From positions 8,370,001 through 8,434,000 of the forward strand of contig CP158635.1 of the NCBI GenBank assembly GCA_050273025.1: 64,000 bases of DNA, in the 5' to 3' direction. The DNA is from Cenococcum geophilum (taxonomy: Eukaryota). The notes beneath the pieces were generated by a model that was given only the letters and a program-made list of their open reading frames with translations, ran no database searches and was not told the DNA's origin. Every line of letters begins with the position of its first letter. Position 1 is the first letter of the stretch. Of the stretch, positions 1-57,370 are shown one piece after another. A program made the translations under genes and the position numbers.

Positions 1-3000
1 CTGTGGTCCAGTTTATAAACTACTTAGAAGAATTAGAAGACAATATACCCTACTTAGATCTATAGGATAACGCTATATAACTTCACCAGCTACTCGCTAA
101 GCTACGACCTAAGATTTAATAGGCCATATAAAAGAAGGGCGAAATTCCTACCTCTTAAAAAAAGCTTATCTCTAAAGCTACTTAGATTAAGAGTGCTAAA
201 AGAGACTATCTAGGCAAGTAAAAGGAACAAGACACTAATAATAAAGAGCATAGGACTAGACCTAGCTTTAATAATAGGGGTAGATTTCGACCTAACCGCT
301 CTATAGAAGGACAACATAAGTAGGCCTCACAGCCCTAGAGCAATGCTAATTAACCCTAAAATAATAATAGGCAAAGACCTAATCCGTAGGAGGGGAACCG
401 GGAGACATATACCTATTATAACTGCGGTAAGAAGGGCTATATAAGCCGCTTCTACCGGCAAAAAAAGTAAGAGTTAGCCTAATTGGGAAAAGAGATAGCC
501 TAGTAAATCTTTACTCCCTTATACTAGGCCAGTAAGAGAAAAAGGGAGTAAACTACCGCATAGTTATTCCTGTCTCTATTTAAGTTAATAATAAATAGGT
601 AACGTAAAACTGCCTTATAGATAGCAGCGCAAGTATAGGGTTTATTTCTTAATTACTAGTAAAAAAATTAGATTTGGACCTTAGCGGCTTATAAGTATGC
701 ACTATTTAAAGCATTAGAGGCCACTAAATTCCATACTATAGGGAATAGGCTTTTTCTATAGCTAGCTAGGACCGCAATAGTCTATAAGACACGCAGAAGA
801 TGCGCTTCTATACTATAGAAATTAAGGGGTACAACTTTATTTTAGGATACCTATGGCTTTACCAAGTTAATCCGGATATTAATTAGCCTTTAGCCTTATA
901 TTAACATTAGAAGTCTTAACCACGTATTATAATTAAAGATTAAGAGACTTTCTTAAACTATATATAAGAAGAAGGGTGGGTATATACTATATATACCACT
1001 CTTAACACTAAGAACGGGGATATAGGATATTTATTTTTAAATATCCGGCTATACACAGTCAAGGAACTAGAGATTTTATAGGAATATACAGACTTAGAGG
1101 ATATTTCTAGTAAAGAGGCTACATAAACCTTACCTAACCCTATATTAGTTAAGCACGAGATAGACATAGGGGATAAATAACCTCCTTTTAGACTACTGTA
1201 TAACCTATTAAAAAATAAGCTGGCGGTACTATGTTAATATATAGTAGACAATCTTTAGAGAGGATAGATTTAGCCCTCTATAAGCCTAGTAGGGGCACTA
1301 ATTATATTTATACCTAAGAAGGACGGAACCCTTTACCTCTATATTAACTATTAGGCGCTAAATAAGATTACTATAAAGAATTGCTACCTATTACCCTTAA
1401 TAGGGGAGCTTATTAACAGGCTATTAAGCGCAAAGATATTCATAAAATTAGATCTAAAAGATATATACTATCGAATCCGGATTAAAGCCGGCGATAAGTG
1501 GAAAACGGCGTTCTAAATATAGTATAGCCACTTTAAGTACCTAGTGATGCCATTTGGGCTTACTAACGCACCAGTGATATTTTAGGCCTATATTAATAAG
1601 GCATTATTAGGCCTATTAGACACAATATATATAGTCTACCTTAATAATATTATAGTCTACTCTAATAACTATAAAGTATATACGTACTATATATAAATAG
1701 TACTAGAAAGACTATAGGAATATAAGCTCTATATAACCCTAAAAAAGTACATATTCTATACTACTAGTATTAATTTTTTGGGCTTTATTATTAGTGTTAA
1801 TGGAGTATTAATAGAGAAAAGTCGGGTGGACGCTATTAGGGAATAGCCCTACTTTACGACATTTAGAGAAGTATAGGTTTTCTTAGGCACGGCGAACTTC
1901 TACTAAACATTTATTGTTTATTACTTATAAGTAATACTCCTAATTACCAATCTACTAAAAGGATCCAAGAATAGTAAGAAGTTAGAACCCTTTATATTTA
2001 GGGAAGCTGCTAAGTAGGCTATAGACCGGTTAAAGGATTTATTTATATTAGCGCCTATCCTAATACACTTCTACTAGGAGCTACACATATACCTTAAAAT
2101 AGATATATCCGGCTTTACCCTAAGGGCAATTATATCTTAATTAAAAGACGGAAAATGGTATCCTATGGCGTTTTAGTTAAGGAAAATAACCCCTATAAAG
2201 CAGCGTTATATAACATATAACTAAAAGCTACTTACAATAATCGCAGCAATAAAGCACTAGCGATATTATTATATAGGAAGCAATTATCCTATTAAAGTTC
2301 TTACAGACTATAACAACTTAGAATACTTTATAACTATAAAGGTATTAAGCGGTCAATAAGCGAGATAGGTAGAGGCACTATTATAGTATAACTTTAAAAT
2401 TACGTACCGCCTAGGGAAGATAAATCCTGCTAATAGGTTATTAAGATATCCAGATTATAAGATAGGGAGGATCTAGAACAGCATAGGGGAAATAATCCCT
2501 ATATTATAAAATTTACTTAAAAAGAAAGAAAACTCTTTCCCTAGAACTATAGAATTTCGTAGTAGGGCAGAAGTCCCAGCGATATAGCTGCGAAGCGATA
2601 TAATTATGGAGCCGTAGGATATAGTTATAGACTAGGTTATAGACTAAGTAGACGTTATAAAGTTAGCATACCCTAGAATTAGCGAGAATTCTATAAGATG
2701 TGCTAGAGGTATTGCGGCACCTTTAACTTAACAGCGTATTAGCTGTAAGTTTTCATATCTAAGGGGGATAGGCGAGATGCCTATCCGTAGTATAGCATAC
2801 TATATAACGGTAGGAGAATCTACTAGCACTAATAGTTCGAAACGTCTTATGCCACACCTTAAGTTTATAATAGCGGTAGGCGAAATAGAAGTAAGTAATC
2901 TATATAAAACCTTTCCGGATCTTCTTCTTTAAGCTTAATAAAGGGACGCCTTCGCCTTTAGGGAGAGGTGGAAAGATATAGTGGAGACTAACTTAGCTAA

Positions 3001-6652: not shown

Positions 6653-8916
6653 ATTGTAGTAGATACGCTATAACTATAACGCGGTAGAGGTCGCCTAAAG
6701 GGATTATAAAATTGCTAATATCTTATTAATTTTAAAGAGCAATTTATTGCCGCTATTAAGAATAGAGTTAAGCTATTAATGGCCTTTATAATAGCTAAGG
6801 AGAAGGCTAACTTTAAACTTGCAAAACAGCTTTAAAAGGAAGGTTATATTATAACTTTAAAAGCTCCTTTTTAAGTATCTAATAAGTAGGAGATCGATAG
6901 TCTTATTATAAGAGGAGTCTTTAAATTTAAGAAGTATAACCCTACTAAATTTAATAGAGTCCGCATCTTTAAGTTAAGAATGGTTAATAAGATTAAGGGT
7001 AAAGCTACTAATACCCTATTTAAGAAATTAAGGCTTATTATCTAAGGTTATAACAATAATAGTAAGGAGGTAATTCTTATATAATCTCCTATAATTTAAT
7101 AAGCTAGTTAGTAAGTTATTATTGCACTAGCTCCCTCCCTAATAAAGAATAAAATAGCGGTCTATTTATAAGATATTACTTAGGCCTACACCTAATTAGA
7201 GATACACCTTTAGCGCTTAATATTAGCATACCTTTTAGAGTAAATTTGCCACTAATATCCCAAAGATATAATTATAGTTGTGCTTAAGCCATTATATAGA
7301 ATCGCAGAGGTAGGAACTTACTAGTAGGCTACCTATAGTAAGTACTATAAAGAGAAGCTTTTAATAACTACTTTTATATTTAATCCCTACTTCCTTATTA
7401 TAACTACGGGAACTCTATTTAGAATTATTAGTATATAAATTAATAATATAATTATTTTAAGAGACAACCAGTTCCTAGCTCTTAAAGAAGATAAGCTAGT
7501 AAAGGTAAATCTTATAGTAAAGCTAAAGGAAAAGCTTAATTTAATAATACTATTACTCTTTAATAGATATATCCTTTCCCTAAATAAGGATTCTATTGCT
7601 TTATACTAGAAGGGTTAAGGTAAAAATATTAATATTATTAACGTTAATTCCCTAAAGCAAGGATATATGGAGTAACGTGCTTGTAAAGCTTATATTACTT
7701 TTATCTATTAACCTAAGGCTTTATTTAATCTCTCCGTTGCCGCTTAATACTAGGAACTAACTAAGAATAACGTTCTTGCCCTAAATAAACATCTTTTCTA
7801 GTAAATAAACTATCTTAATTGGGGACTACTTTATATGCCTATTAATCTCCCTACCGCTAAGCTCTTTATATTTATTAATGGATTATTTATAAATAATAAA
7901 GACTTTAGCTCCTAGTTAGGATATAAAATTATTATTATAAACAAATTTACTAGAGAGAATAACTTTATAATCTATAGCAATCTTATCTATTAGAGCTTAA
8001 CTAAGAGTAAGCGCGTTACCTAAAGTATTTTGGCGTTAGAGATATATAGAATAGTTAGCGGAGTTAATATAGTAATTGCAATTAGAACTACCCTAAAGAT
8101 AATTATAAATTAACTTAAACTTCTTATTATCCCTATAATTATATACACTAACTTATATTCCCTCTATAAGTATTTAGTTAAGCTTAGTATTATAAAGGAA
8201 AAGCGCCTTATAATTAATATTATAGTATTTTAGCAATCCTATAAGCGTTAAAAACTCTTTAAAATTTAATAGATTAATGGCTAAGATAACCTAGCGGATA
8301 TAATAATAAAGGTAAACCTAAATAAGGCACTAGAGACGTTTATTAATATAAATACTCTATGTATATAAGTTAAAGGTTAGGTTAAAAGGGAGTCCTTAGA
8401 AATTTCTTAGTTATATAAGGTCTTAAGATATCCAGGAACTTTAACTGGCGGTTAAAGTTGTTTAATTAGTTAGATTCTCTTACTAAGACTTTTTAGAAGG
8501 GGGGATTCTATAGACCCTAACTTAACTAAGCTAATTAGGATTTTCCATCCCCGGGATAGAAAATTGCTATTAGCTCGCTTACTACTAGTGCCTTAGTGGC
8601 CCTCTAAATAAGATACCTACCTATAACTCCTAAGTAAGAGAGCTACGTGCTAAGAGGCAAATTTTGGGATAGCGAGACTTATATTACAATAGCAATAGTA
8701 AGTGAAGAGGATTTATATATAGATGGCAACCATAAAAGAAGAGTTGCTAGTGTCGGGAATGAGGCAAGTTGCCATTACGTGTCGCCGCGGTACTAGCGTG
8801 GCGAGGAGCCTTAAGTTCCTCGCCCTTCCTTATTCCAATTAATAAGCTTTATTAACCAACATCACTGTAACCTACTCGAGTAGTTGTTATTGGTGAGTCA
8901 CCCTGTATGACTAACA
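6653..8916 (+). mobile_element. Ty1/copia-like element, 3' half (RT, RNase H, 3' LTR); RIPed, interrupted by gypsy A
   Basis: De-RIP motifs RGRGRPKG, KSRLIIQGY, DITQAYTQS, LKPLYGIAEAG, MQTDDT, FVDGSFANNKDFSSQLG, SKRVTRSVLASE. Confidence 0.88.
8751..8916 (+). repeat. Short copia 3' LTR (166 bp)
   Basis: TGTCGG...CTAACA termini after a purine-rich tract. Confidence 0.75.
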
Positions 8917-9680
8917 AATAGCTTAATAGCCGCTCCTTTTAGGTCACCCTTAAGTAACTTATTTTTTAGTAATTCTTTCTTAATACTCCTTAACCTAATT
9001 TCTTCTAATACTCTATTACCTTTATTATAGCGTTTTTTAGATTCTATAGTAGTTCCTAGGTAGTCTTATTATAGCCTACCCACTTAACTTTACACTATGT
9101 TTTATTGTTAATATCCTTATAATTAATAATCTTTAAAACTTCCTATTTATCTTCCTCTTGACCTCTATACGTGTCTGCTTTATAGATTAGTAATTTAATA
9201 TTTCTATATGCTGGTTTTAGTATCGCGATATACTATATAGGGTAGATCTTTATTTTCTCTAGTAAGTTAAGTCTATACACAACTTCTAAAATCTTTACTA
9301 TAATCCTAAATAGTCCTAGTTTAACGTAGTTTAATTTCTTACTTAGTCGTTAACTCTTAAAATTTTTATATAGTAGCTATACTTTATCTCCCTCCTTAAG
9401 ATCTAGTCCCTTAAATCTTTTAATATTATAGTACTTTTTTATTCTTTCTTATACCATTTTTGATAATTTAATAAGGTCTATATAAAGATTTATTAGTATC
9501 TTTATCCTTTCTTTAGCTATACTACCTATCTTTTTTACTTAATATAGTAATAATAATGTTCTTAGCTTATACCTATAATTTACCTTAAATAGTAATATTT
9601 CTATTCCTTCCTATAGCGCCGCACTATATATAAATTATATAACTAGTAATAACAATACCTAATTATTTGGTACATTATAT
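8917..9680 (-). mobile_element. Gypsy family B-related fragment (integrase C-terminus and chromodomain), RIPed
   Basis: Reverse complement aligns by eye with 23970-24660. Confidence 0.8.
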
Positions 9681-11280: not shown

Positions 11281-12080
11281 CTGCACAAAGCTCTGCGCAA
11301 AGCTCTGTGTACGAAGGCTCTACGCGAAGCTCTACAGAGGCTCTACACAAAGCTCTACACGAAGCTCTGCACGAAGCTCTGCACGAAGCTCTGCACGAAG
11401 CTCTGCACGAAGCTCTGCACGAAGCTCTGCACGAAGCTCTGCACGAAGCTCTGCACGAAGCTCTGCACGAAGCTCTGCACGAAGCTCTGCACGAAGCTCT
11501 GCACGAAGCTCTGCACGAAGCTCTGCACGAAGCTCTGCACGAAGCTCTGCACGAAGCTCTGCACGAAGCTCTGCACGAAGCTCTGCACGAAGCTCTGCAT
11601 AAAGCTTTACACGAAGCTCTACATACGGAGGCTCTGCACAACGGCTTTGCGTACGACAGTTCTGCGTATAACGGTTCTGCGTATGACGGCTCTACTACAG
11701 AGACTCTATATAAAGCTTTGTGTAGATCTTCGTGTAGAGCTTTATACAGGGCTTCGTGCAAAGCTTTATACAGAGCCTCCGCAGAGCTTCCCGCGGAGCC
11801 TCCATATATAGAGCTTCGTATAGAGCTTTGTACAGAGCTTCGTACAAAGCTTCGTGCAGAGCTTTATACAAAGCTTCGTGCAAAGCCTCCGGATATAGAG
11901 CTTTGTATAGAGCTTTATATAGAGCTTAATTTATATAGAGCTTTATATAGAGCTTTATTTATATAGAGCTTCTATAGAGCTTCTATAGAGCTTCGTATAG
12001 AGCTTTATATAGAGCTTTATATAGAGTCTCTAGATGTAGGGCTTCGCGATTATAGGGCTTTTATATATAGAGCCTCTATA
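11281..12080. repeat. 12-bp minisatellite (GCACGAAGCTCT) with an inverted second half
   Basis: 19 perfect units at 11369-11596, degenerate 12/15-mers around them. From ~11720 the units read AGAGCTTCGTGC (the reverse complement). Confidence 0.95.
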
Positions 12081-17810: not shown

Positions 17811-20800
17811 TATTACGGACGCTTTAAGTACAATATTACAACTACTTAGAGAGGAGTTAGAAGAAGCTAGTTAGTTAATACAAGCACGGTCTAAGATAGA
17901 GTCTATAAAACTATGTAATAAGGAATAGTAACTAAGGTTACATAAGGTGCTACGTAAAGAACGCGAGGAACGAAGGGAACTTACGTACCTTATGTATAAC
18001 ACGTATATTACGTACAAGAAGGATTTTATAGGAGTACGGTTATGTATTTAAGGACCCTCAGTCCCTACCTAGATAGTTCCTCCCTTATAGTGATTCTCAG
18101 AATATAATTAGAGTTAATCTGTTAGGCAACCACTCCACCAGTTATTATTACGTTGTTAACTTACTTACAATACCTATATACCTAGCCCATTAATAAGTCC
18201 ACCATAGTTCCTACTACAAGGCTTCGTTACATAATTACTACTACAATTACGGTTTTAATAAGTTAAACAATATGCTACCAAAAGCAGCCACCACAACGCT
18301 ATTAACGGCGGCAACTACGTCAGGATTAGGTAACAATACTAGTATAGCAGACACTAACTTATAACAACCTATAACAGTAGGACAGTTATAAATAATAGTT
18401 AATTAGTTAACGGGAGATAATATAGCACTTAAAAATAGGATCAATAGAATAGGAGCAGCAAAGGTTAAGTTACTATCGATTAAAAGATTCTTAGGAGAAA
18501 AATCAAAGCTTAAAGGATTCCTTACGTAAATATACTTTAAGGTTACGTAGGAAGGAGCAAAGCTAGCAATAACTATAAATTAAGTAGCATATGCAGGATT
18601 GTTCTTATTAGAAAGAGTACTTAAATAGTTTAAGCCTTACCTTACAGAGATACAAGTAAATAAAATAATAATAACAAACTAGGAAGTACGGTTTATGTTT
18701 TTAAGTTAAAATGGATTTGCAGAGTAACTTATATAGATGTTTAGGGACCTAAAAGCAACAACTATAGCGGAAAGAAAGCTTCAGAACCTAATATAATAAA
18801 CTTTAGCAATTAAGTATACGACATAATTCCAAACACTAGCTATATAACTTAAGTGGAATAATAAGGCGCTTATAGCACAGTATAAACAGGGACTTAAGGC
18901 TAAAGTCTAGGACGTAATTATTCTAATAGAAGATGCGGACACCCTAAGGGAATTAATAGATTAAGCAATTAAAATTAACAATAGGATCTTCCAAAGGGAA
19001 AAGGCTAAGAGGGGCCAGAACAGAGTTCCACAGTTATATAAGACGCAGAGTACGCAACAACTAAAGCCAAATTAGAAACTATAGTATAGCGTAAAGCTAA
19101 TAAACCTAAGTGGTACTAAAGAAACCTATAAGAGATAAAGCAAGAAACTATAGAAACCTAAAAGTTAAGAATTAAGTAATTATAGGACTAAGGAGCATAG
19201 GCTAAACCAAGGATCTCAGCAGCAGAAGACGTTTGAGCGGACTCTATAACAGAAGTAATGGTTTAAAGAAGGAGCTTATATAAATTACGGAAAACAGAGT
19301 CATTTCGCCAGAGACTGTAGAAGTAGTTAGAGTTATTACGTAGTAAAGGGAACTAGACTAGTAGTATATAACACACACATATAGAGGGACAATAGTGCGC
19401 TACAAGGAACAAAAGAATATTTAATTAAAAGTTTTGCGTTTTGTTACAATAACGCATACCAAATTTATAAAAACGCTAAGTATGGTGTAAGCTATTGGCC
19501 ACAAGAGCCAGAGTTAAAAAAAACTTAGAGGAACTAAAGAGTTAAATAAAGAATAAGATCGACTCTATAAGCTAAATTAAGACATTATAGCAATATACGG
19601 ACAAAGATTAGTAACAATAATAATGGAGTCAAAGTACTTATTAATTAACAGCGATAAGGACAGTAAAGGAACTAACTAGGGGTATCTAAACCTTAATAAC
19701 GCAATAGAAGTAAAGACTAAGACCGCTATAAAGCAAGGTTTAGTAACGGGCATTATAATACCGTTAGATACGGCATCCATCGCTTTATAAGACGAAAGGA
19801 GTAATATCTAAAGACGATTAAGTAAGCAGATAACTGCTAGTGCTAGCTTACCACTTAAAACAGGCAAAAGGCCAAAGGCTCAAGATTCTCAGGATAAGAT
19901 AAAAGATAACTAAGATTCTTAAGACAAGATAAGGCATACTTAGAGACCCATAACGGACGATAACTAATAGAGCAGAGCAGTAGCTTAGTTTAAGAATATA
20001 TAAATAAGCTTAGGACAAGCGCTCCTAACGGCATAAGACTCTTAAGACGAGATAAGAACACTAAGTAAGCCTAATTAGACTAAGGCTAAAGCTAAGCTTA
20101 AGTCAGAAGTAAGCTTAGAATTAAAGAATCTAAGGGATCAAGAATTCGGAGTATAAATTAGGACACCTATAAGCAAGAGGCAAGGAGCTTTATTACAGAT
20201 TAGAGAATCTATAGCGCGAATAGTAATTAGACTAGGAGACAGATATATAGACCTAAAAGACTTACCAGGGGAATATAGTGTTCAGCCTAAAGATCAAAAA
20301 GTTAATATTAAGATTAAGAAGCACGAAGACTTCAAGGATCCACTCATAAGACGCAACGTAAAAGAAACTATAGAGGAATTCAGGGCAAGAATTACCTTAT
20401 AGCAAGAACAGAAACTAGATAAAAGATCTAGCATATTAGGACGTATAAAGGACAGAGCACTAGTATAAAGAATTACTAATAGGCCTAGAACAGGCACACC
20501 AAGAGTAAAGTGGCTTACTAAACTAGAACAAGAAGAGGATTTAGGGATTCCTACTAAGTTTAAAGAACGACACACTAATGGCTGTCACGACGCAGTAATA
20601 AAGAGATACTTCTATACGGACGAGCCGTATACACTTAAGTAGCTGTACTAAAAGTGGTATAGATAATGACACAACAATAAATAGGAAGACTTCTATATAT
20701 AGTTAGACGAAAAAGTTATCTAAGACCACCCGATTATAGAGAAGGCTATAACTTATATTAAAGGGGCCTTAATTATAATATTAAAGGATCTAAAGAAGCA

Positions 20801-23800
20801 ATTAAAGGACTGGAGAAGTAAAAGACGAATCTTAGTACCTATAAATAAAGTTGCAACGCTCAGATTAATATAAGAGAGGTTTAAACTTAAGGATAAAGAT
20901 AAGCTAAGAGTTAACCTAAGACATTAAGCACATTATATACTATTATAGATAGTATGCATAGATAATGCGTGCAACATATATAAGACACTAAAGGATAAAA
21001 ATTAAAAGTATCCAATAAGGATGTATTAGATAACGGACGAGGCGAAATATAGAAACGTTAAGTATATACATAGTTAGCACCTAGTGGAAGTTTAAGAATA
21101 AGGGGACTTAATACTTTAACCAGGAAGATTCTTTACGGAAGAATGTCTAGATAGACGATAATGGTGGGAATATTCAGAGAATACCTATCTATAGCACATT
21201 AAAGATAAAAAACGAACTAAGTATTAGCCTAAGTTAGACCAAGTATAAATAGGATCTAGTAGCTAATAGTCGGGAAAAGTAGAGGCCTACGGGACCAGAG
21301 GAAGCTAGTGGTAGAGCCTTAGACCCTTAAGGGAATTTAAAGATAACACGTAAATTTATAAGTTAAATAGTAAGATCAACAGTTTGAGGCATTAATAGAT
21401 AGTAGAGCAATAAGGAACCATATCTCGCTAGTAGTAGTAAAAAAAATAAGATTACTACACAGATAAAAGGAATGTCCTTACCTATTAGTGACAATTTTAG
21501 GAGATCCGATAGCCTACGGAGGAGGTATCATTAATCTTAAAACAGGACCAGTTTAGCTAACCATTAAAGGAAAACAAGTTAAGATATCTTTCGATATATT
21601 ACTATTAGGAAGTAATAAGGCAGTATTAGGAATACCTTAATTACAGGAATACAATCCAAAGATTAATTGGGTTATAGATTAGGTCAATATTAGAGATACT
21701 TAACGCCGTAAGATATAATAATAAGCCAAGCTAGTATAGTACCAAGTAGGAGCGACCTATAAAGAAACGGAAAAAGGATTAAGTTATATACTAAAGAGAT
21801 ACCACGAGTATGGCAAAAAATTATAGTTACCTAAGAGTGAAAAGCTGTTAAAGTATATAGTATAGGACTATAAAATAGAATTAGAACCAGGAATAAGTCT
21901 AAGGTTCTTTCCAATTTATAAGCTTACTAAAGAAGAAGGCAGAGCATTAAAAGAGTTTATCTAAGAAAACTTATAAAAAGGATATATTAGACCATCGCAG
22001 TTATTAGTAGGTTATCCAGTACTGTTCGTACCAAAAAAGAATAGTAGACTAAGGCTGTATATCAACTATAGATAGTTAAACAGCATCACTAGAAAGGATA
22101 GGTATCCTTTACCCTTAATTAGCAAAATCTAAGATAGGATAGGTAATGCACAAATCTTTATAAAGATAGATTTGAGATAGGCGTACTATTAGATTAGAAT
22201 TAAGGAAGGCGATAAATAGAAGGCAGCCTTTAGGTTAAAGGAAGGACTGTATAAACTACTAGTTATGTAATTCGGGCTTATAAACGCACTAGCAACATTC
22301 TAGAAGCGTATTAATAATGTATTAGAAGAACATTTGGATGAATTTATTATAGTATACCTTAATAACATTATTATCTACTTATTAAGTGAGGAAGAATATA
22401 AAGAATATATTAAATAGGTTTTAAAGAGACTATAAGAAGAATAAATGCTAGTAACAATTAAGAAATACGAGTTCTTTACTAGGAAGACCGATTTTATTAA
22501 ATTTATTATTAAACTAGGCTAACTTAGTATAGATCTAAAGAAGATTAAGGCTATAGTAAATTAGCAGGAACTAGAGAACGTTATATAGTTAAGATTGTTT
22601 TTAGGGTTTTGCAATTACTATAGAAGGTTTATAGCGTAATAGTTAAAGGATATTAAACCATTTATATAATTAATAAAGAAAGAAGAACTATAGGTATGGA
22701 AAGAGGAGTAGTAAGAACTCTTTAAAAAAGTTAAAGAGTTATTTACCTAGGAGCCAGTTCTTAAGATCTATTAACTAGGACTAGAGACGGTTGTAGAAAT
22801 AGATACATTAGACTTTATACTAAGAGTATATTTTATATAAAAGCATCCAGATAGATAGCACCTAGTGGTATACTATAGTCGGAAGATAACACCACTAGAG
22901 CTAAACTATAACATCTATAATAAGAAGTTGCTAGGTATAGTTATAGCACTAAAGGAATAAAGAGTATTCTTACAAGGCATAGAAAAACTATTTATGGTTA
23001 AAACGGATTATAAGAACCTAACAGAATTCCTAATAATAAAGGAACTTAACCGAAGATAGGTTAGATAGGCAGAGATGCTTACAGAATACTATTTTAAAAT
23101 TTAGTACACTAAGGGTACAGACAACACGCGAGCCGATGCGTTAAGTTAAAAGGCTAAACTATAAAATAATGATAAGCTATTAGGGGCTTTACTGCGAAGA
23201 GATATAGATGGACTGATTAGGTATAATTATCTAAAGATTATAGCAACATAAGAAAATAAGTTAGAAAAGGTCTATAAGATACTAGAAAGCCTTTAGGTAT
23301 AAAGGATTCTAAAAGCATAACTAGAAGACCTATAGTTAGATATATACGAAAACCAAGAAGCGAAGTATATCCTAAGGAGTATAGCAAAGCAGTTTATAAA
23401 GGAATTCTATAAGAGATTAACTTAAAAATATAATAGAGCAAAGGGCTTAGTGTTAAGACTTTAGAAGGAGTATATTATTAACGGAATCTAGAGGATAGCT
23501 AGAAAGGTCACTAAAGAATATCTAAATTACTAAAGGAATAAACTAATGAGGCATAAGCTATATGGAGGGCTACAACCTGTTAAAATACTAGAAAGACCAT
23601 AGGAGGTCATATTATAGGACTTTATTGTTAAGTTACTAAAGTTAAAAGACCCTATTACCGGACAGGATTATAATACAATCCTAGTAATAGTAGATAAGCT
23701 TATAAAGTAGGGATACTTTATAGCCTATACGGAAGAAATCTCAGCGGAAGATGTCGCTAGAATCTATATTAAAGAAGTGTTTATAAGATATAGAGTACTA

Positions 23801-25798
23801 AGCAAAATCATATTGGACAGAGATTTAAGATTCGTAGCAGTATTCTAGAAAGTATTCTTGGCGGAATAAGAAGTTTAAGCAGTAACTTCTACCGCATATT
23901 ATCTATAGACAGACGGTTAAACGGAAAGATTAAACTAGACACTAGAGTAGTATCTAAGGCACTATATTAATTACGCATAGAATAATTAGGTATCGCTATT
24001 ACCAATTATATAATTTGCATACAATGCAACACCATAAAAAGGAATGGGTACGTCACCATTTAAGGCGAATTATGGATATAAGCTAAGAACATCACTATCG
24101 CTATAATAAACAAAGAAAACGAGTAGCAAAGCTAAGTAAAGAATAGAAACTTTAATAAATCTTTATATAAACCTTACGGAAACAGCTAAGACAGTATAGC
24201 AAAGAATGAAAAAATACTATAATGCTAGGAGATCTAAGGGACCAGATCTTAAGGAGGGAGATAAAGTATAGCTACTATACAAAAATTTTAAGAGTCGACG
24301 ACCAAGTAAGAAGTTAGACTACGTTAGGTTAGGACCTTTTAAAATTATATAAAGGATTTTACCAGTTACGTTTAAATTAAACCTACTAGCCAAAATGAAA
24401 ATCTATCCTATATAGCACATTGCAATGCTAGAGCTAGCATACGGAAATATTAAACTATTAATCTATAAGGCAGATACGTACAGAGGATAAGAAGAAGACG
24501 AATAGTAAGTTTTAAAGATTGTTAGTTATAAGGACGTAGATAATAAAATATAGTACGAAGTAAAGTAAATAGGCTATAACGAGACTACCTGGGAGCCACT
24601 AGAGAATCTAAAGAACGCTATAGGAAAGGTATAGGAGTATTAGAAGAGAAAAGGTTAGGTAATATTAATAAAAAAGAATCGCCAAAGAATAAGCCACCTA
24701 AGGGGGACCTAGGAAGAGCAACTACTAAACTACTTAGAGTTGTTTCCTTCTCTATTGGAAGAGAATCCATTCTTTTATTACTAAGTTCCTACAGACCTTA
24801 TTTTATAAGTTTTCACTCCTTAGAACAAACCTTCTTACATACCTTTTTAAGACGAAGTAGACGGGTAAACGCCGTAATGCGAGTATCTAAGGCCTTTTGT
24901 TCCGCATCCTAAGAACGCTTAAGCTTAGCAAGGGCCTACGCTAGGTTACTATTAAGCTTTGCAGTAGCAGATTAAACACAAGACCCTATAATAAATTACT
25001 TAGGGAACTTAAAGACTATTAAGAGTTATAGGACGCGTATACTTAGCGTTAGAAGTAGAGTAAATATCGCAAGATAATTAAACGTTTACTTTAGTGCACT
25101 CTAAATAAGAGGAGGGTTGCCAAGATAAAGGACTCGCCAACGTAATATAAACTAGCCCCTCTTTTAAGTAACGAGAATACGGAGATGGTATTATTTCACT
25201 AAGTAATAATATTGCAGCAATAGTACGAGCACGACGTTGCGCGTATGAAGAAGAAGAAGCTTTAGGTATTATAAGTAACAATATTAACTAAATTAATTAG
25301 ACGGATATTACACCTCTAGTAAACGACTTAGAGATATTAGGTATCTTTAAGGATAAAGATAAAGAGGAGGGAGATGGTGTTACGGACGCTTTAAGTACGA
25401 TGTTATAACTACTTAGAGAGGAGTTAAAAGAAGCTAGTTAGTTAATATAAGCACGGTCCAAAATGGAGTCCGTGGAACTATATAACGAGGAATAGTAACT
25501 AAGGTTATATAAGGTGCTATATAAAGAACGCGAGGAATAAAGGAAACTTACGTACCTTATGTATAACACGTATATTATGTATAAGAAGGATTTTATAGAA
25601 GTACGGTTGTGTATTTAAGGACCCTTAGTCCCTACCTAGATAGTTCCTCCCTTGTAGTGATTCTTAGAATATAATTAGAGTTAATCTGTTAGGCAACCAC
25701 TCTACTAGTTATTATTACGTTATTAACTTACTTGTAATACCTACATATCTAGCCTATTAACAAGTCCACCGTAGTTCCTACTATAAGGCTTCGTTATA
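17811..25798 (+). mobile_element. Full-length Ty3/gypsy chromovirus, family B copy 1 (RIPed), nested in copia
   Basis: 421-bp LTRs 17811-18231 and 25378-25798. TSD GTATT (17806-10 and 25799-803). Gag from ATG 18272, knuckle ~19277, slippery GGGAAAA 21272, protease ~21395, RT YLDD ~22354, integrase, chromodomain ~24500-24640. Confidence 0.96.
24700..25345 (-). pseudogene. Antisense Zn2Cys6-like plus coiled-coil gene of gypsy family B (RIPed)
   Basis: Reads P-Y-SR-Y-LKEGLV-Y-x13-Y-LE-C-x8-C, giving Cx2Cx6Cx13Cx2Cx8C after de-RIP. A putative intron (~25041-24986) is followed by heptad-rich sequence. Conserved at 46070-46690 and 48300-48930. Confidence 0.7.
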
Positions 25799-29856: not shown

Positions 29857-31749
29857 ATGCACTTAACTTCATGCTTCTTATGGATTGGCTTTCTTGCCAA
29901 AATTGCATCTACCTATGAATCTGAAGCACCTGATGAAGAAATATCCTCTCTTGAAACCTTTACCACTAACTTCGTAGAGGAAGCGGTGCCGGAGGAGGAC
30001 GACCACATCTACGGATTTGATGTCATATCAGCCCCAGTTGAAAACCTAACAACAGAAGAACTCATCGACAGTCAGGCTCTGCAGCTTCAACTATTCGCGG
30101 ACATTATCACCAATTATCCACCACCAACACCGGATCATGGGGAGTCCGTAACGCCTCCCGTTATACCTTTCTGCCCGAACGAAACTGAGCTCGGTCCGCT
30201 GAGGAAACGGTATAATGTGCTCAGCCATATCTTCGGTGGCGGAGGTCGACCCCCTATGCCGGATCTACGCCCCTGTACTCCGACGAGCCTTAACATCGAT
30301 GTATATGTGCATTATGTCGGTCAGACAGGCAAAGCAATCCCATCGAACCTGGATATAAGAGTACGAAACCAGGTAACCACAAGAATGATGCTGCTCTTCT
30401 ATTAGGATTTGGACTAAGTCTTAGTATTCAGTTGAAACATATGAATTATGTCTTCAATGCTCAAAGGATCTTCTTACACCTCCGGTCACACGTCTACTAT
30501 TGGGAGGACGACAAGTTCTCGAAGCATGTGAAACACGCTCCAACGAATGACTTGTTCTTCATTGAAACACGGATTCCCGGCCCAGACGTCCTAAATATTT
30601 GGATCGTTGACACCCTTGTTGTACTAAGGGGGGAAGGGGAGAAACCGCAGGAGTTGAAAGGGGTAAGTCCATCTACCAATTCCTATCTTGAGTGTAGCTA
30701 TAGCGCTATCTTCCATGTCTTTTCAGTTATGTTCTGCAATTACCATTCCTCCCTGCTAGCACGGAACTTTTCGAAACCGTGTGCAAGGGAGGAGGAACTC
30801 GCTGTATCGGATGTCAGTTGACTCTCAACCCTTCTAGTACGCCGGTTTTCCATGTGAGAGAAATTTCAACAAAGACGGCATTATCTTAGCATTAAAATGG
30901 TTGCGTGGTTTTAAAACTACCGCATCTCCAAAATTTCCTTTTCCGAAGGGAGACACCGCGATACACGAAACGGGACATTGGATGGGCTCGCTTCATACCT
31001 TCGGCGATACCGACTGCATTACCGACGATGGGCTCATGGGCACCGCTTGGACATCCAACAAAATATTTACTTCTGACGAGTCAGGCGACGTGTACAGCTG
31101 CAAGCAGAAGCTCTGCAATTCGAAGACTAACGAACGTCTTATGATTAAAAATTGGATGAGTGTTAGTCCACCCATTTATACATTTCATGTCGTATCATTC
31201 ATTGAGCGCTGACCTTTTTACCCTGTTTCCCAGTATTCCTCCTGCAGAGGTCAAAAAAGTGTAGAAAACCTGGAGACATCTCTGTTAGCCTTCACGCCGG
31301 ATCAACAAGCCCGCATGTGAGACCACTTCCTCAGATACAGAAGCGGTCTGAACGTCAAGCCTGACTGGTGCCCATTGACCAAAAGATCACTACCTTCAGA
31401 AACAAATGCGACATTTTCCTTACTAGGTGAGCTATTGGTCAACGACTGCTCGACCAAGTTAGTTTTGGCGAACGACACTATCACCGTAAAAGATGGTAGC
31501 ACCGTCCTTCCCCCGGTCGGTGATACAAGTCATCCACCTGAAGCCAAATCCGGAGATCGGAGATCAAGACATCCCCACATGTCGTCCACCACAGAGTCAC
31601 CCGTCATTAGCAGTGCGAACTATGAGCAGGATATCTCAGACTATCCGACGCCTGCGCCATCCGAAAGCTCGCCCATTACTTCGACAACTAGTGAGGAACA
31701 CTCGTTGCGTAGACGGGGCAGAACTGCGAGAGAGCGGTCCGAATTATGA
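29857..31749 (+). CDS. Secreted metzincin metalloprotease, peptidase M43 (pappalysin/MEP1-like); 4 exons; in-frame TGA at 31318-31320 (truncated allele or pseudogene)
   Basis: Exons 29857-30372, 30432-30662, 30838-31161, 31234-31749, with GT-AG phase-0 introns. Signal peptide MHLTSCFLWIGFLAKIAST, acidic pro-region with LRKR, LKGYAGFP, HETGHWMGSLH zinc motif, NWMSY Met-turn, FTPDQQARM. Confidence 0.88.
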
Positions 31750-45817: not shown

Positions 45818-47462
45818 AAGAAGAAGACAAATAGTAAGTTTTAAAGATTATTAGTTATAAGGATATTAATAATAAAATATAGTATAAGGTTAAGTAGATA
45901 GGCTATAATAAGACTACTTAGGAACTACTATAAAATTTAAAAAACGCTATAGGAAAGATATAGAAGTATTAAAAGAAAATGGGTTAGGTAATATTAAGAA
46001 GGAGCTAAAGATAAAGGGATTAGTTAAAGGTAATAGAGGAGCTGAATTATTTAAGGAATCTACTACTAGCGTATAAGCTGTTTCCGCCTCTTCTTAATTA
46101 GAATTCTTTTTAGCCTTTTTAGCCTTAAGTTTAGATAGACCTTATTTTACTAAACATAGCTCTTTTAAGCGCACCTTTTTATAAACCTTTACTAGATGGC
46201 TTAGGCGAGTATAAGTATCTAGTTAAGCTTTTAGAGCCTAAAACGCCTTATTAAAATAACGTTAAACCTTAATAAGGGCCTTAGCTAGCTTACTCTCTAG
46301 TTTTTTAGCCGCTACTAATACGCGTAACCCTAAAACAAATTAAATAAGGAACTAGACGGTTATAAAGATTAATAAGATATATATACTTAGCGTTAGAAAT
46401 AGATTAAATATTATAGAATAATTGTATATTCGCTTATGTGTACTTAGTACAGAAGGAAGGTTAGCAACTAAATAAAGCCGCGATTATAATATATACTAAC
46501 TTCTTCTCTATATAATAAGAGTAGGACGGTATAACTTTACTAAGTAAAAGAATAAATATTACTAGCTAGTTACGACAATTAGACGCAGAGGATTTAATAA
46601 AAGGTATTAGGAATAATAAAGATTATTAAATTAAAGATGGGAATGCTATACCTCTAATAGACGACTTAGAGATAGGAGGTATCTTTAAGGATAAAAATAA
46701 AGAGAAGGGGGATAGTGTTACGGACCTTATATTAGTAGTAGTACGACTACTAAAAATAGATATAAATGGGTTGGTTAAGATAGTATAGGAGGCGCTAAAA
46801 CTAATTAAGCTATAGAATAAGGGGTAGCTAAGTTATATAGCTAGTTATGTTATAAGTTTAGAATATAGAAACGTAGGAATATAGAAATGTAACGTACTAA
46901 CATACTAACGTACTAAACCCTTTACTATAGGGAGGAGTTATATATTTAAGGACGTACGGTCTCTATAGATAGTTTCTCTTCTTTATATTAAATCTTAGAA
47001 TATAATTAAAGTTAATCTATTAGGCAACCACTCCATTAGTTATTATTACGTTATTAACTATTCTATACCTATATACCTAGCCCATTAACAAGTCTACCAT
47101 AGTATTTCCTACAAGGCTTTGTTATATAGCCCGCTATTTACTACCCTATTTAGAATCTGGTACTACTATAAAAGGATTACCTCTAAGCCCCTTAGTCTAC
47201 TTACGTTAAAAGGCCTATATGAACTTTATTATATAGCATATACAATATATAGGCGGCTACTTAAGCTAGAGCTTAAGCTTAAGCTTAAACTTAGGCTTTT
47301 ACTATAGCTATAGTAGCGGTAGTAAAGTAATAGAGGGGAAAAGATAGAAAGATAAAGCGGAAGCTATAGCGCTTACTAGGCTAACGCTTATATTACTACT
47401 ATAGTAGATTATAAAATATAATGCTAGTAAAAAAACAAATTTAGAGACTATCTATTAGCTAG

Positions 47463-48049: not shown

Positions 48050-49362
48050 AGACCTATAAAAAATAAAGGAGTTAGAGATATAATAAGGACATTAACAACG
48101 AAATATAGTATAAAGTAAAGTGAATAGGCTATAATAAGACTACCTAGAAACTATTATAGAACCTAAAAAACGCTATAGAATAGGTATAGGAGTATTAACG
48201 GAGAATAGGTTAGGTAATATTCAAAAAAAAGCTAAAGATAAAAGGATTAGTTAAAGGCGATAAACGAGCTAAATTATCTATAGGATCTACTACTAGCGTA
48301 TAAACTGTTTCCGCCTCTTCTTAATTAGAATCCTTTTTAGCCTCCTTAGCCTTAAGCTTATAGAGACCTTACTTAGCAAGACGTAACTCCTTAAAGCGCA
48401 CCTTTTTATAACCCTTTTTAAGACGGAGTAACCGAGCGTAGATAGCTAGTTAAGCCTTAAATACTTTCCGCCCTTTAGCGCGAATCCGCTTCCTATTATC
48501 TTAGAGCTTTTATACCTTAGCTAGGGCTATAGCTAACTAATCCTTAAAATAGAATGCGGTAGATTAAACACAAGACCCTATAATAGATTAGGTAAGATAC
48601 TAGATAATTATAAAAAATTATAAAATATATATACTTAGCGTTAGAAACGGATTAAATATTATAGGATAATCGCATATTTACTCGCAAATACTTAGTATAA
48701 GAAGAAGATTAGCGACTAGATAGAGCTATAATTATAATATATACTAATTTCTTCTCCTTATAATAAGAATAGGACAGTATAACTTTACTAAGCGATAATA
48801 TAGTAGTTACTAGCTAACTATAATAATTAGATAAAAAAGATTTAATAAAAGGTATTAGAAATAATAAAGGTTATTAAATTAAAGATAGGAATGCTATATC
48901 TTTAATAAATAACTTAGAGATAGGAGAAATCTTTAAGGATAAAGATAGAGAGGAGGGGGGTAGTGTTATGGACCTTATATTAGCAGTAGTAGAACTACTA
49001 AAAAGAGATATAAATAGATTAGTTAAGATAATACAGGAGGCGCTAGAACTAGTTAGACTATAGGATAAGGGATAACTAAGTTATATAGCTAGTTACGTTA
49101 TAAGTTTAGAATATAGGATAGACTAACGTACTAATATACTAATATACTTAGTATATTTCTTAGGCGCAGTATTATATATTTAAAGGAATATAGTCCCTAC
49201 CTAGATAGTTCTCTTCTTATAGTAAATCTTAGAATATAATTAGAGTTAATCTATTAATTAACTTACTCTACCAGTTATATTATTATTTAACTTTCTATTT
49301 ACCTATATACCTAGCTTAATAACAAGTCCACTATATAGTATTTCCTATAAGTATTTATTACA
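48050..49362 (+). mobile_element. 3' fragment of gypsy family B (chromodomain, antisense Zn-cluster gene, PPT, LTR 48964-49362)
   Basis: Aligns with 45830-47126. Confidence 0.88.
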
Positions 49363-54437: not shown

Positions 54438-55454
54438 TTACAACTCAAAGTCTCCTAGAGGACTCTGTTCCTCTAGCACTACAGCGCCTTGAGCTGCCGT
54501 TGACAGAGAATTGAGGTATCCACCAAGCCTTATGCCAGCCATGCCAATCAAATAGTCGACAATCGGCACAGCACCTTTATAGTAATCGGTACTTAAGTCC
54601 TTGTCAGCAAACCAATCCTTTATTTCCTCCAAATCTGTGAGCCCGCCAACATTCAACACATAACTGCAAATATATTTATTCGCCTCTGTCGCCCAATCCA
54701 TAGTGCACTTCTGGGGGTTAGTCACATCGGCGCACTGCTTCTTGACTCTGCGCTTCTGATTCGCGGCATAGAGTTTGTTTGCCCATTCAGCAGCTGCCGC
54801 CCTCTCTTCATCGTTGTTGGCAGCGTTAGAGATGCCGCAGATCTTGTGAGGAATGTACTTGTCCCAGACGGCGTGCAGTTCGTTATGGGCGCAAGCGCGA
54901 CGGAAACATGTCGAAATATTGTTACCTCCCCTGAAGGCGTTTTCAGTGTGTAAAGGCTGGTGCAGGTCGCCGATAAAGTGAAAGATGAACATCAGTGCTT
55001 CTTTCCGCACAATATCCTTGGCGTTCGGGTCGAGGAAGAGCGAGGTTTGATTTGTAATGGCAGATATAATACAACCTTCATGGTGCTCAGAGTTAAAGCA
55101 GTCACGATCATAGTTGACATTGCATTCCAAAGGTGGAGCATCGAGGGCATCTTTGGCTTTCTGTCAGTGTATTTCTTGCCGTCCGTGTCTTGCACCATCA
55201 AGTACATCTGCCGTACCAATGTAGTGCCATTCCTTCGTCAATGGCCGTGAGTGGGGGCCACGCTTGATGGTGTCGGCCCACGTCGCAGCGTCTGAGAATT
55301 CGAAGCCCGCGAGGATGCCACCGATGTATTCAGCCGCTCCTTCTGTCAAGTACTTCTGTGCGAGGTAGGCGACGGTTCTATGACCAAGGTCGCTCCAGCA
55401 AGTACCGTACTGGGGAAGCGAAAGCAAAGCGACTGCAGCAACGGAGAAGCGCAT
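54438..55454 (-). CDS. Secreted S1/P1 nuclease, 316 aa, 2 exons
   Basis: Exons 55454-55217 and 55150-54438. 66-nt intron GTACGG..CTGAC..AAG. Signal peptide followed by WSDLGH, WAD, WHYID, HFIGDLHQPLH, LHAVWD, AGIRLG. Confidence 0.95.
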
Positions 55455-55749
55455 GGTCGGCTGGACGAAAGAGCTATGAATGGGAAAGCGGAGAGATGTT
55501 GAGGTTCACGGTTCGTGGGGTTGAAGCACAAAGCTTTATTTTGAGTCTCTCGTTGTGCAAACATTCAGCCCTTGGCCGGCTTCAGCCGTAAGAATTGCCT
55601 TTTCTGGGACAGCGGGCGGGAGAGGCTGTGAGCGAATAAAATGCGCATGTGCGAATTATTGCTGCCTTGGCCCAGCTGATGTTGTGGAGTGGAAGGTTGA
55701 ATCAGGATCTGATTGCTGTGATCTGCTCGCCAAGAGCTGAGGGCGGGCT

Positions 55750-56599: not shown

Positions 56600-57370
56600 T
56601 CTATACCTACGTAGAGCTTCGTGCGGAGCTTTACACGGAGGCTCTATACAAAGGCTCTGCGTATGGGTGCTCTACACGAGGCTCTGCGCGGGGCTCTGCA
56701 TTAGGGACTTCACGTACAGAGGCTCTATATACGGATGCTCTGCGTATAGAGGCTCTGCGTATAGAGCTCTACGTACGGAGGTTCTACACGACGCTCTGCA
56801 CAACGCTCTACATTAAAGACTGCGTACGGAGGCTCTGCGTACGAAGGCTCTATACGACAGTCTACACAACGCTCTGCATACGGAGGCTCTGCGCATAAAG
56901 GCTCTACATACGGGGGCTCTATACAACGCTCTACACGACGCTCTGCATCGAAGACTCTGCGTACGGAGGCTCTGCGTATAGAGGCTCTGCGTACGAAGGC
57001 TCTATATACGGAGGCTTTGCGTACGGAGGCTCTGCTTATAGAGGCTCTGCACGAAGCTACGTGCGTGGAGTCTCCGTATATAGAGTCTTTAATATAGAGA
57101 GTCTTTAATATAGAGAGTCTTTAATATAGAGAGTCTTTAATATAGAGCGTTATATAGTATTATATAGAGTTATATAAAGCCTCTATATAGAGAGTCTTTA
57201 GTAAAGAGCGTTATATAGGCGTTTATTTATTAAAATATTTATAAAGATAATTATAGAGGCGTATATAGAGACGATTATAAAAGTATTTATAAAAGTATTT
57301 ATAGAGGCGTTTATTAAGACAATTATAAAGGTATTTATAGAGGTAATTATAGAAATATTTATATAAACGT
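56600..57370. repeat. Degenerate 12/15-bp minisatellite (GCGTACGGAGGCTCT family), RIP increasing rightwards
   Basis: Same unit family as 11281-12080. Confidence 0.85.

Follow-up and report, generated by a model that had tools for sequence, protein, structure and literature searches.

A putative antisense accessory gene with a zinc-cluster-like layout in RIP-mutated Ty3/gypsy chromoviruses of Cenococcum geophilum

A 64,000-nt stretch of the Cenococcum geophilum genome (assembly GCA_050273025.1, contig CP158635.1, positions 8,370,001 to 8,434,000 of the forward strand; hereafter ‘the window’, to whose first letter all window positions refer) contains three 3′ ends of Ty3/gypsy retrotransposons in which a minus-strand frame, running opposite to gag-pol, occupies the spacer between the chromodomain and the 3′ long terminal repeat (LTR). 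These sites are very probably copies, killed by repeat-induced point mutation (RIP), of a genuine antisense accessory gene of an ascomycete Ty3/gypsy chromovirus lineage. A more specific reading, that a widespread lineage of ascomycete gypsy elements encodes a Gal4-like dimeric zinc-cluster factor from a twice-spliced antisense mRNA originating in the 3′ LTR, overprinted on an open extension of pol and so a counterpart of the retroviral protein HBZ, is put forward tentatively, its chances being in our judgement somewhat short of even.

The antisense gene and its host element

Six-frame translation of the window contains the pattern [C/Y]x2[C/Y]x6[C/Y]x13[C/Y]x2[C/Y]x8[C/Y] in exactly three places, one per 3′ end, and the pattern occurs in none of 100 block shuffles of the window. 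A preliminary description, made from the sequence alone, had drawn attention to a minus-strand frame with Tyr or Cys at these six positions at all three 3′ ends, and to the survival of Cys 5 and 6 in copy 1 and of Cys 4 in copy 2, and both statements agree with the translations. A chance pattern in Tyr-rich RIP-mutated DNA, in which TAY codons are frequent, has practically no probability left, being refuted by the shuffles (three matches observed against zero in 100) and by hundreds of relatives that carry Cys at these positions. The parts of the gene in the window are as follows.

25179..25069, minus strand: six-position cluster of copy 1, Y,Y,Y,Y,C,C (by pattern; C at each position in relatives)
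46523..46413, minus strand: six-position cluster of copy 2, Y,Y,Y,C,Y,Y (by pattern)
48771..48661, minus strand: six-position cluster of copy 3, Y at all six (by pattern)
25041..25269, minus strand: exon 1 of copy 1, from the former first ATG, with one stop (by translation)
46386..46622, minus strand: exon 1 region of copy 2, with four stops (by translation)
48634..48870, minus strand: exon 1 region of copy 3, with three stops (by translation)
25040..24986, minus strand: intron B of copy 1, 55 nt, phase 1, ATACGC...TATAG before GG, with the donor GT changed by RIP to AT and a TAG acceptor
46384..46330, minus strand: intron B of copy 2, 55 nt (gap of equal length)
48632..48578, minus strand: intron B of copy 3, 55 nt (gap of equal length)
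24618..24985, minus strand: exon 2 of copy 1, long helix and acidic tail, stop codon at 24620-24618 (by homology to relatives)
25260..25313, minus strand: putative intron A (leader), donor AG/GT conserved at 25313-25312, acceptor placed by likeness and uncertain

Both former ATG codons of copy 1 are now ATA, the first at 25269-25267 and the second at 25191-25189. Exon 2 of this copy, which is homologous to residues 81-152 of the protein relative P0154 and to exon 2 of the metagenomic loci L008, L002 and L011, carries six RIP-type stops and brings the in-frame stops of the copy to seven. The conserved frame shifts by one base past a 55-nt gap in each of the three copies; this is the phase-1 intron-like gap noted earlier, whose removal restores ‘AEWSRV’. 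The window holds dead copies of the antisense gene only.

Relatives were sought with a profile built from the three window copies and three first hits, and natural little-mutated relatives were used for comparison in place of a de-RIP consensus. Among 1.84 billion proteins the profile search returned 251 cluster representatives at E<=1e-3, 156 of them at E<=1e-10, most being short open reading frames (ORFs) out of equally mutated DNA. The full six-position pattern is found in 190 of the 281 relatives fetched, with Cys at positions 1-6 in 93, 110, 57, 66, 124 and 95 of these 190 respectively and at all six positions in eight of them, and the spacing 2-6-13-2-8 is constant in all copies. Because each of the six positions holds Cys in 57 to 124 of the relatives, the Tyr positions of the window are read as RIP-changed Cys, as had been supposed at the outset.

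The association with the element extends to these relatives. Out of 600 pattern-matched stretches of metagenome contigs, 575 were confirmed and 80 loci were returned, and in 54 of the 58 loci with sufficient flank integrase and chromodomain lie <=900 nt away on the opposite strand. Locus L008 (7546 nt, GC 0.48) is a complete element, unmutated and in a circular assembly with a single LTR, in which gag and pol are open (ORFs of 996 and 1236+ amino acids) and the opposite strand bears an intact ATG, the Cys cluster, the 55-nt intron and exon 2. Un-RIPed relatives of this kind therefore retain the ORF and the splice sites, whose loss there the preliminary description had named as a ground for giving up the gene. 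The ends of the L008 contig share three bases and a contig from run X3 spans the same junction, the locus being either a repeated active element whose copies were collapsed in assembly or a circle with one LTR. Its LTR also contains tandem motifs at 6958-7025, approximately GTACGTC(G/A) four times followed by CACGTTCC four times, which are candidate factor-binding repeats.

The host element is a Ty3/gypsy chromovirus because it combines a reverse transcriptase, two RNase H families, a Tf2-1 SH3 domain and a terminal chromodomain motif. With stops read as X for the Pfam runs on window frames, the plus-strand frame of the full-length copy 1 matched RVT_1 (1.8e-18), RT_RNaseH_2 (4.1e-17), RT_RNaseH (5.5e-17) and SH3_Tf2-1 (1.4e-08), and the motif YEVKxIGYNETTWEP was read in translation at the end of pol. 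The LTR pair, which is 90.6% identical over 417 nt by self-BLAST, the reverse transcriptase, the RNase H, the integrase SH3, the chromodomain motif and a polypurine tract are thus all present, located as follows.

17813..18229, plus strand: 5′ LTR of copy 1 (by self-BLAST to 25380-25796)
18230..24640 (end approximate), plus strand: RIP-degraded Ty3/gypsy chromovirus gag-pol of copy 1 (by Pfam and translation)
25361..25377, plus strand: presumed polypurine tract AAAGAGGAGGGAGATGG directly 5′ of the 3′ LTR (by position and composition)
25380..25796, plus strand: 3′ LTR of copy 1 (by self-BLAST)

The two other 3′ ends lie at ~45818-47126 (copy 2) and ~48083-49360 (copy 3); each has 66-67% identity with copy 1, and the two share 77.5% with one another. 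The spacer from chromodomain to 3′ LTR, in which the antisense gene sits, is ~730 nt long. The window is AT-rich fungal DNA with strong RIP signatures, most 4-kb blocks having a TpA/ApT index of 1.5-1.9 and a (CpA+TpG)/(ApC+GpT) index of 0.27-0.66. A fourth, partial pol end (window 8916-9667, minus strand) is 77% identical to 23981-24735 and is truncated within the tail of antisense exon 2.

Splicing, selection and the overlap with pol

Exon 1 and exon 2 stand in +1-shifted frames in 52/80 loci (count from the locus table), and the segment that parts them, intron B, was found in all 75 copies measured, with lengths of 55, 61, 115, 127, 130 and 133 nt. Little-mutated loci have a GT donor, a CTGAC-like branch site and a TAG acceptor in this intron, and mutated loci have AT at the donor. 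Spliced junctions were found as ‘...SVSDAEWSRV...’ in P0154 and P0172 and as ‘...AEWSQV...’ in P0176, and in a contig of the public run X1, where L008 position 7487 plus five variant letters (Ala-Glu kept) is joined to position 5, removing the 55-nt intron B exactly. Judging by these junctions, antisense intron B is real and precisely removed, yielding the AEWSRV sequence that had been predicted for the spliced product (AEWSQV in P0176).

A second X1 joint on L008, with GT..AG ends, skips 58 nt farther upstream (intron A, L008 7226-7283). The donor of this intron is GT in 57/60 aligned copies, and P0172 is without the segment. Intron A spans the first ATG, so that two N-termini are possible, MPPIRSS... 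or MPSCSRC..., and since splicing removes that ATG the spliced message would begin at the Met of ‘MPSCSRC’. P0172 and one X1 contig extend upstream over the polypurine tract into LTR sequence of the relatives, which fits a transcript that probably starts inside the 3′ LTR, the origin assigned to it in the preliminary description. Splice sites have an established strand polarity, and the sense genomic RNA reads CT..AC across these introns and is unspliceable, so that the introns can be inherited via reverse transcription; they would remain uncut in the sense genomic RNA and be copied at each retrotransposition. The suggestion that antisense introns survive retrotransposition in this way fits the presence of intron B in every copy measured.

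Three points about the transcripts limit this account. Run X1 is counted as RNA by guess only and was seen as contigs, and its spliced form could be the DNA of a processed copy; the strand of the spliced forms was taken from GT..AG polarity and the transcript start was not read directly; and X2, the one library that is certainly RNA (a small share of words), gives an unspliced contig only, which is not evidence against splicing. In X1 the antisense gene has a greater depth than gag-pol, and since contig depth cannot rank the parts this is not evidence of expression level. In locus L001 (1040-1459; P0094) an in-frame loss of the greater part of intron B together with its 3′ splice site leaves the continuous ORF ‘SDAECTFHVRSAAARL’, a variant that looks like a genomic deletion rather than a precise splice.

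Selection on the antisense frame was assessed from transversions only, counted in 60 aligned copies, because RIP makes none. Within the initial 200 nt of exon 2 the transversion diversity is 0.25/0.23 at antisense position 3 and 0.05-0.11 at positions 1 and 2; here the wobble position of the pol frame falls on antisense position 2, and antisense position 3 is pol-frame position 2. The median ratio of nonsynonymous to synonymous substitution rates (dN/dS) of the antisense frame is 0.19 in exon 1 and 0.29 in exon 2, against 0.47 and 0.78 for the pol frame, values to be read with the reservation that the pairs come from six little-mutated copies, some of them lightly RIP-mutated, and are not independent. 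Of five other control frames, four have dN/dS values of 0.7-1.5; the remaining one is the sense frame whose wobble positions coincide with those of the antisense frame in exon 2, and its value of 0.28 is the expected one. Purifying selection acts on the antisense frame, and the dN/dS check proposed with the preliminary description came out in favour of the gene.

The opposite strand is also open. Beyond the chromodomain of L008 another ~290 codons of the pol frame are open (positions 387..1 and 7544..7050, minus strand; window counterpart 24640-25500, plus strand). They span the polypurine tract as well as the antisense gene, and the frame ends at a conserved stop ~114 nt inside the LTR, after ‘...EPVEPWDEG’. 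The extension is also open in L003 (one frameshift) and in L002 and L052 (few RIP-type stops), and the pol frame of copy 1 likewise continues beyond the chromodomain toward the LTR, with RIP stops. Intron B lengths are 1 mod 3 in 75/75 copies and the distance from LTR edge to chromodomain edge is 1 mod 3 in 41/44 copies, over 17 different values; length changes in threes, even in antisense introns and leader, point to a sense frame that is kept open. Over exon 1 the openness of the pol frame follows automatically from the antisense protein sequence. Over exon 2 the probability of finding no sense stop is 0.028 by synonymous shuffling of L008, and since the pol frame shows no amino-acid constraint there (dN/dS 0.78), the most economical interpretation is selection for an open frame. 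The extension may carry a conserved acidic end or, more speculatively, may avoid a long untranslated tail.

These data bear directly on whether conservation of the spacer might stem from the sense strand, as a C-terminal extension of pol of which the antisense frame is a by-product. The ~290 open codons of L008, nearly matched in L003, L002 and L052, the lengths of intron B and spacer and the openness of exon 2 are what such an extension would lead one to expect. However, variation in exon 2 is concentrated at antisense position 3, which is pol position 2, and dN/dS over exon 2 is 0.78 for pol versus 0.29 for the antisense frame; nor would a pol extension account for the GT..AG introns, for their removal in the spliced forms or for the invariant Cys pattern. 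As a sole explanation it is contradicted by the wobble signal and dN/dS, and we regard it as very improbable. Overlapping coding on two strands, with the antisense frame under amino-acid selection and pol merely open, fits the data best.

Protein layout, proposed action and surroundings

In the least mutated relatives, L008 among them, the gene product is ~175-200 residues long and consists, in order, of an optional 25-residue leader, the C-x2-C-x6-C-x13-C-x2-C-x8-C cluster, which bears a weak resemblance to the fungal Zn(II)2Cys6 domain, a ~75-residue helix and an acidic, proline-rich and hydrophobic tail. Gal4-type factors show the same order of parts, with the Cys6 cluster followed by a linker, then the long helix, then an acidic tail, and the helix forms a dimerising coiled coil in Gal4, Ppr1 and Put3. 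The protein thus appears to be laid out like a Gal4-type factor; membership of the Zn(II)2Cys6 family is not established. The preliminary description had proposed a Zn2Cys6-like cluster followed by a heptad-rich coil, within an interpretation that as a whole was upheld in part. In the Pfam comparison PF00172 (Zn_clus) is the commonest weak match, found in 22/66 members at E<=10 (best E 0.0054, alignment A7), and L008 residues 28-66 align in register to positions 2-31 of its profile; the next families, DUF3716 (best E 0.012) and DUF6300 (best E 0.0085), are each weakly matched in 6/66 members, DUF3716 being perhaps a relative among fungal Cys-rich modules. AlphaFold2 predicts the long helix with confidence (residues 77-151, predicted local distance difference test score (pLDDT) 94-99). 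In the ESM Atlas the nearest cluster, with a score of 0.92 and 77 members from Ascomycota, has been labelled automatically as ‘Zn(2)-C6 fungal-type domain-containing protein’, a lead and not a test, and for the Cys domain alone the ESM Atlas scores of <=0.83 were uninformative. The supposed lack of an evident activation domain is now doubtful, the last 60 residues being acidic with Pro and bulky hydrophobics (D+E 8-13 vs K+R 2-4 among the four proteins complete at the C-terminus).

The remaining results on the protein speak less for a zinc-cluster factor. No Pfam family reached its cut-off: L008 exon 1 scores 14.3 bits against PF00172 (E 0.044), below the cut-off of 21 bits, and in an earlier set PF00172 appeared in 2/15 homologues, with E 1.1-1.5 over ~10 residues. 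A profile search of sequences of solved structures gave no zinc-cluster protein and only weak coiled-coil-type matches (best E 0.012). The predicted structure is confident for the helix and of low confidence for the cluster, the Cys region having a pLDDT of 48-67 in the longer AlphaFold2 model and the domain modelled alone from 66 sequences a mean pLDDT of 54, with low-confidence short helices after each CX2C (pLDDT 39-57), where the Zn(II)2Cys6 fold has a pair of short helices, one from each CX2C, enclosing two zinc ions; the tail described as heptad-rich is a long helix with a moderate heptad signal only. The nine minus-strand window frames, with stops as X, gave neither a PF00172 match (0/9) nor any other Pfam match. 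The PROSITE-type Zn(II)2Cys6 pattern is C-x2-C-x6-C-x(5-12)-C-x2-C-x(6-8)-C, so that the 13-residue middle loop is one residue longer than its range, the other spacings fitting, and there are only one or two basic residues between Cys2 and Cys3.

The same results are the grounds for supposing a real protein whose Cys cluster, as a module held by zinc or by disulphides, binds protein or RNA and is not part of a DNA-binding transcription factor; such a protein might, for example, counter silencing, tether the element or act on the element's own RNA. The sub-threshold Pfam match, the longer middle loop, the scarcity of basic residues between Cys2 and Cys3, the low confidence of the Cys fold, the missing homologue of solved structure and the weak DUF3716 matches in six members all suit this alternative. 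Against it stand an order of parts that matches Gal4-type factors and the rank of PF00172 as by far the commonest weak match (22/66 members, versus six for the next family), and we consider it rather unlikely. That the protein binds two zinc ions, dimerises via its helix and, by sequence-specific DNA binding, regulates the element's own LTR or host genes we hold to be about evenly balanced between true and false.

Were the Gal4-like reading correct, antisense transcription would start in the 3′ LTR and both antisense introns would be spliced out of the message; the six-Cys cluster of the translated protein would bind zinc, its helix would dimerise it, and it would bind DNA with the acidic tail as its effector part. 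The target would be the LTRs of the element or host genes, a step to which we give roughly even chances, and the element would in this way tune its own LTRs or host genes. A conserved, spliced and selected antisense gene with the layout of a zinc-cluster factor is a testable candidate for self-control of the element or for escape from silencing, and it shows cleanly how two strands can code in overlap. Many sequences, fungal as well as metagenomic, contain the gene, and its copies may be annotated as host transcription factors, since at least one nearby cluster has been auto-named as a Zn(2)-C6 fungal-type protein.

Elsewhere in the window, two GC-richer islands with normal RIP indices contain ORFs (54438-55505, minus strand, and 30838-31212, plus strand). 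Among the motifs of these ORFs, we take ‘HFIGDLHQPLH’ to be S1/P1 nuclease-like and ‘HETGHWMGSLHTF’ to belong to a zinc metalloprotease, and the islands are probably host genes between transposon nests. Two internally repetitive stretches (11281-12006 and 56623-57058) match one another at ~70%, and the ORFs near 56725-57120 are short peptide repeats.

Comparison with known antisense genes and zinc-cluster factors

To our knowledge, regulators encoded by transposons, well known in retroviruses, are almost undescribed in fungal LTR elements. The closest system is brtn, an additional antisense gene of Boty-like retrotransposons reportedly described by Zhao et al. 2011 in Virology 417:248. In Boty of Botrytis cinerea, a gypsy element with a chromodomain, brtn lies antisense between pol and the 3′ LTR (PMC7264820, PMC8365987, PMC4227169), and one passage of the literature on Boty states that it is absent from the current B05.10 annotation. 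Antisense ORFs in this position occur in plant gypsy elements as well as in Boty, and their function is stated to be unknown in the passages concerned (PMC7264820, PMC8365987, PMC4227169, PMC5987419); the plant examples Grande, RIRE2, Retand and PvRetro13 are described as conserved within families, with a regulatory role suggested (PMC7264820). The window gene, antisense between pol and the 3′ LTR and conserved at the coding level, has the position, orientation and conservation of such an antisense additional ORF (aORF-3R).

The gene described here might itself be brtn, and so a further member of a published family, which we regard as a real possibility, if one that falls a little below an even chance. 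Position and orientation in a fungal chromodomain gypsy element are the same in the published descriptions (PMC7264820, PMC8365987, PMC4227169), the likeness being one of description and not of sequence. On the other hand, none of the 120 matches listed of 188 has an NCBI or UniRef origin or the name BRTN, and the passages that describe brtn mention neither a Cys cluster or coiled coil nor an intron or an overlapping pol extension; PMC7264820 calls the function of ORFs of this kind unknown. More generally, full-text searches turned up no open paper in which an antisense gene of a fungal retrotransposon is credited with introns, a coiled coil or a zinc cluster. The plant antisense ORFs, again likened by description, share position, orientation and conservation within families with the window gene; they belong to plant elements, and the account in PMC7264820, as far as it concerns them, gives no architecture of zinc cluster plus helix.

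The reading as a Gal4-like factor invites two further comparisons. HBZ of human T-cell leukaemia virus type 1 (HTLV-1), the closest analogue in logic, is an antisense gene whose transcription begins in the 3′ LTR and which has a spliced isoform; it encodes a basic leucine zipper (bZIP) protein with a DNA-binding basic region and a coiled-coil dimerisation helix. It shares with the window gene the logic of an antisense retroelement gene, and the analogy is one of logic only: HBZ, with its bZIP protein, comes from a vertebrate retrovirus, whereas the window gene has a Cys6 cluster, belongs to a fungal retrotransposon and has no homology to HBZ. With Gal4-type factors the family has in common a fungal range and six Cys in two CX2CXnC triads, followed by linker, long helix and acidic tail, and it differs from them in its sub-cut-off score, its 13-residue middle loop, the few basic residues of its first triad and in being a small protein encoded inside a transposon.

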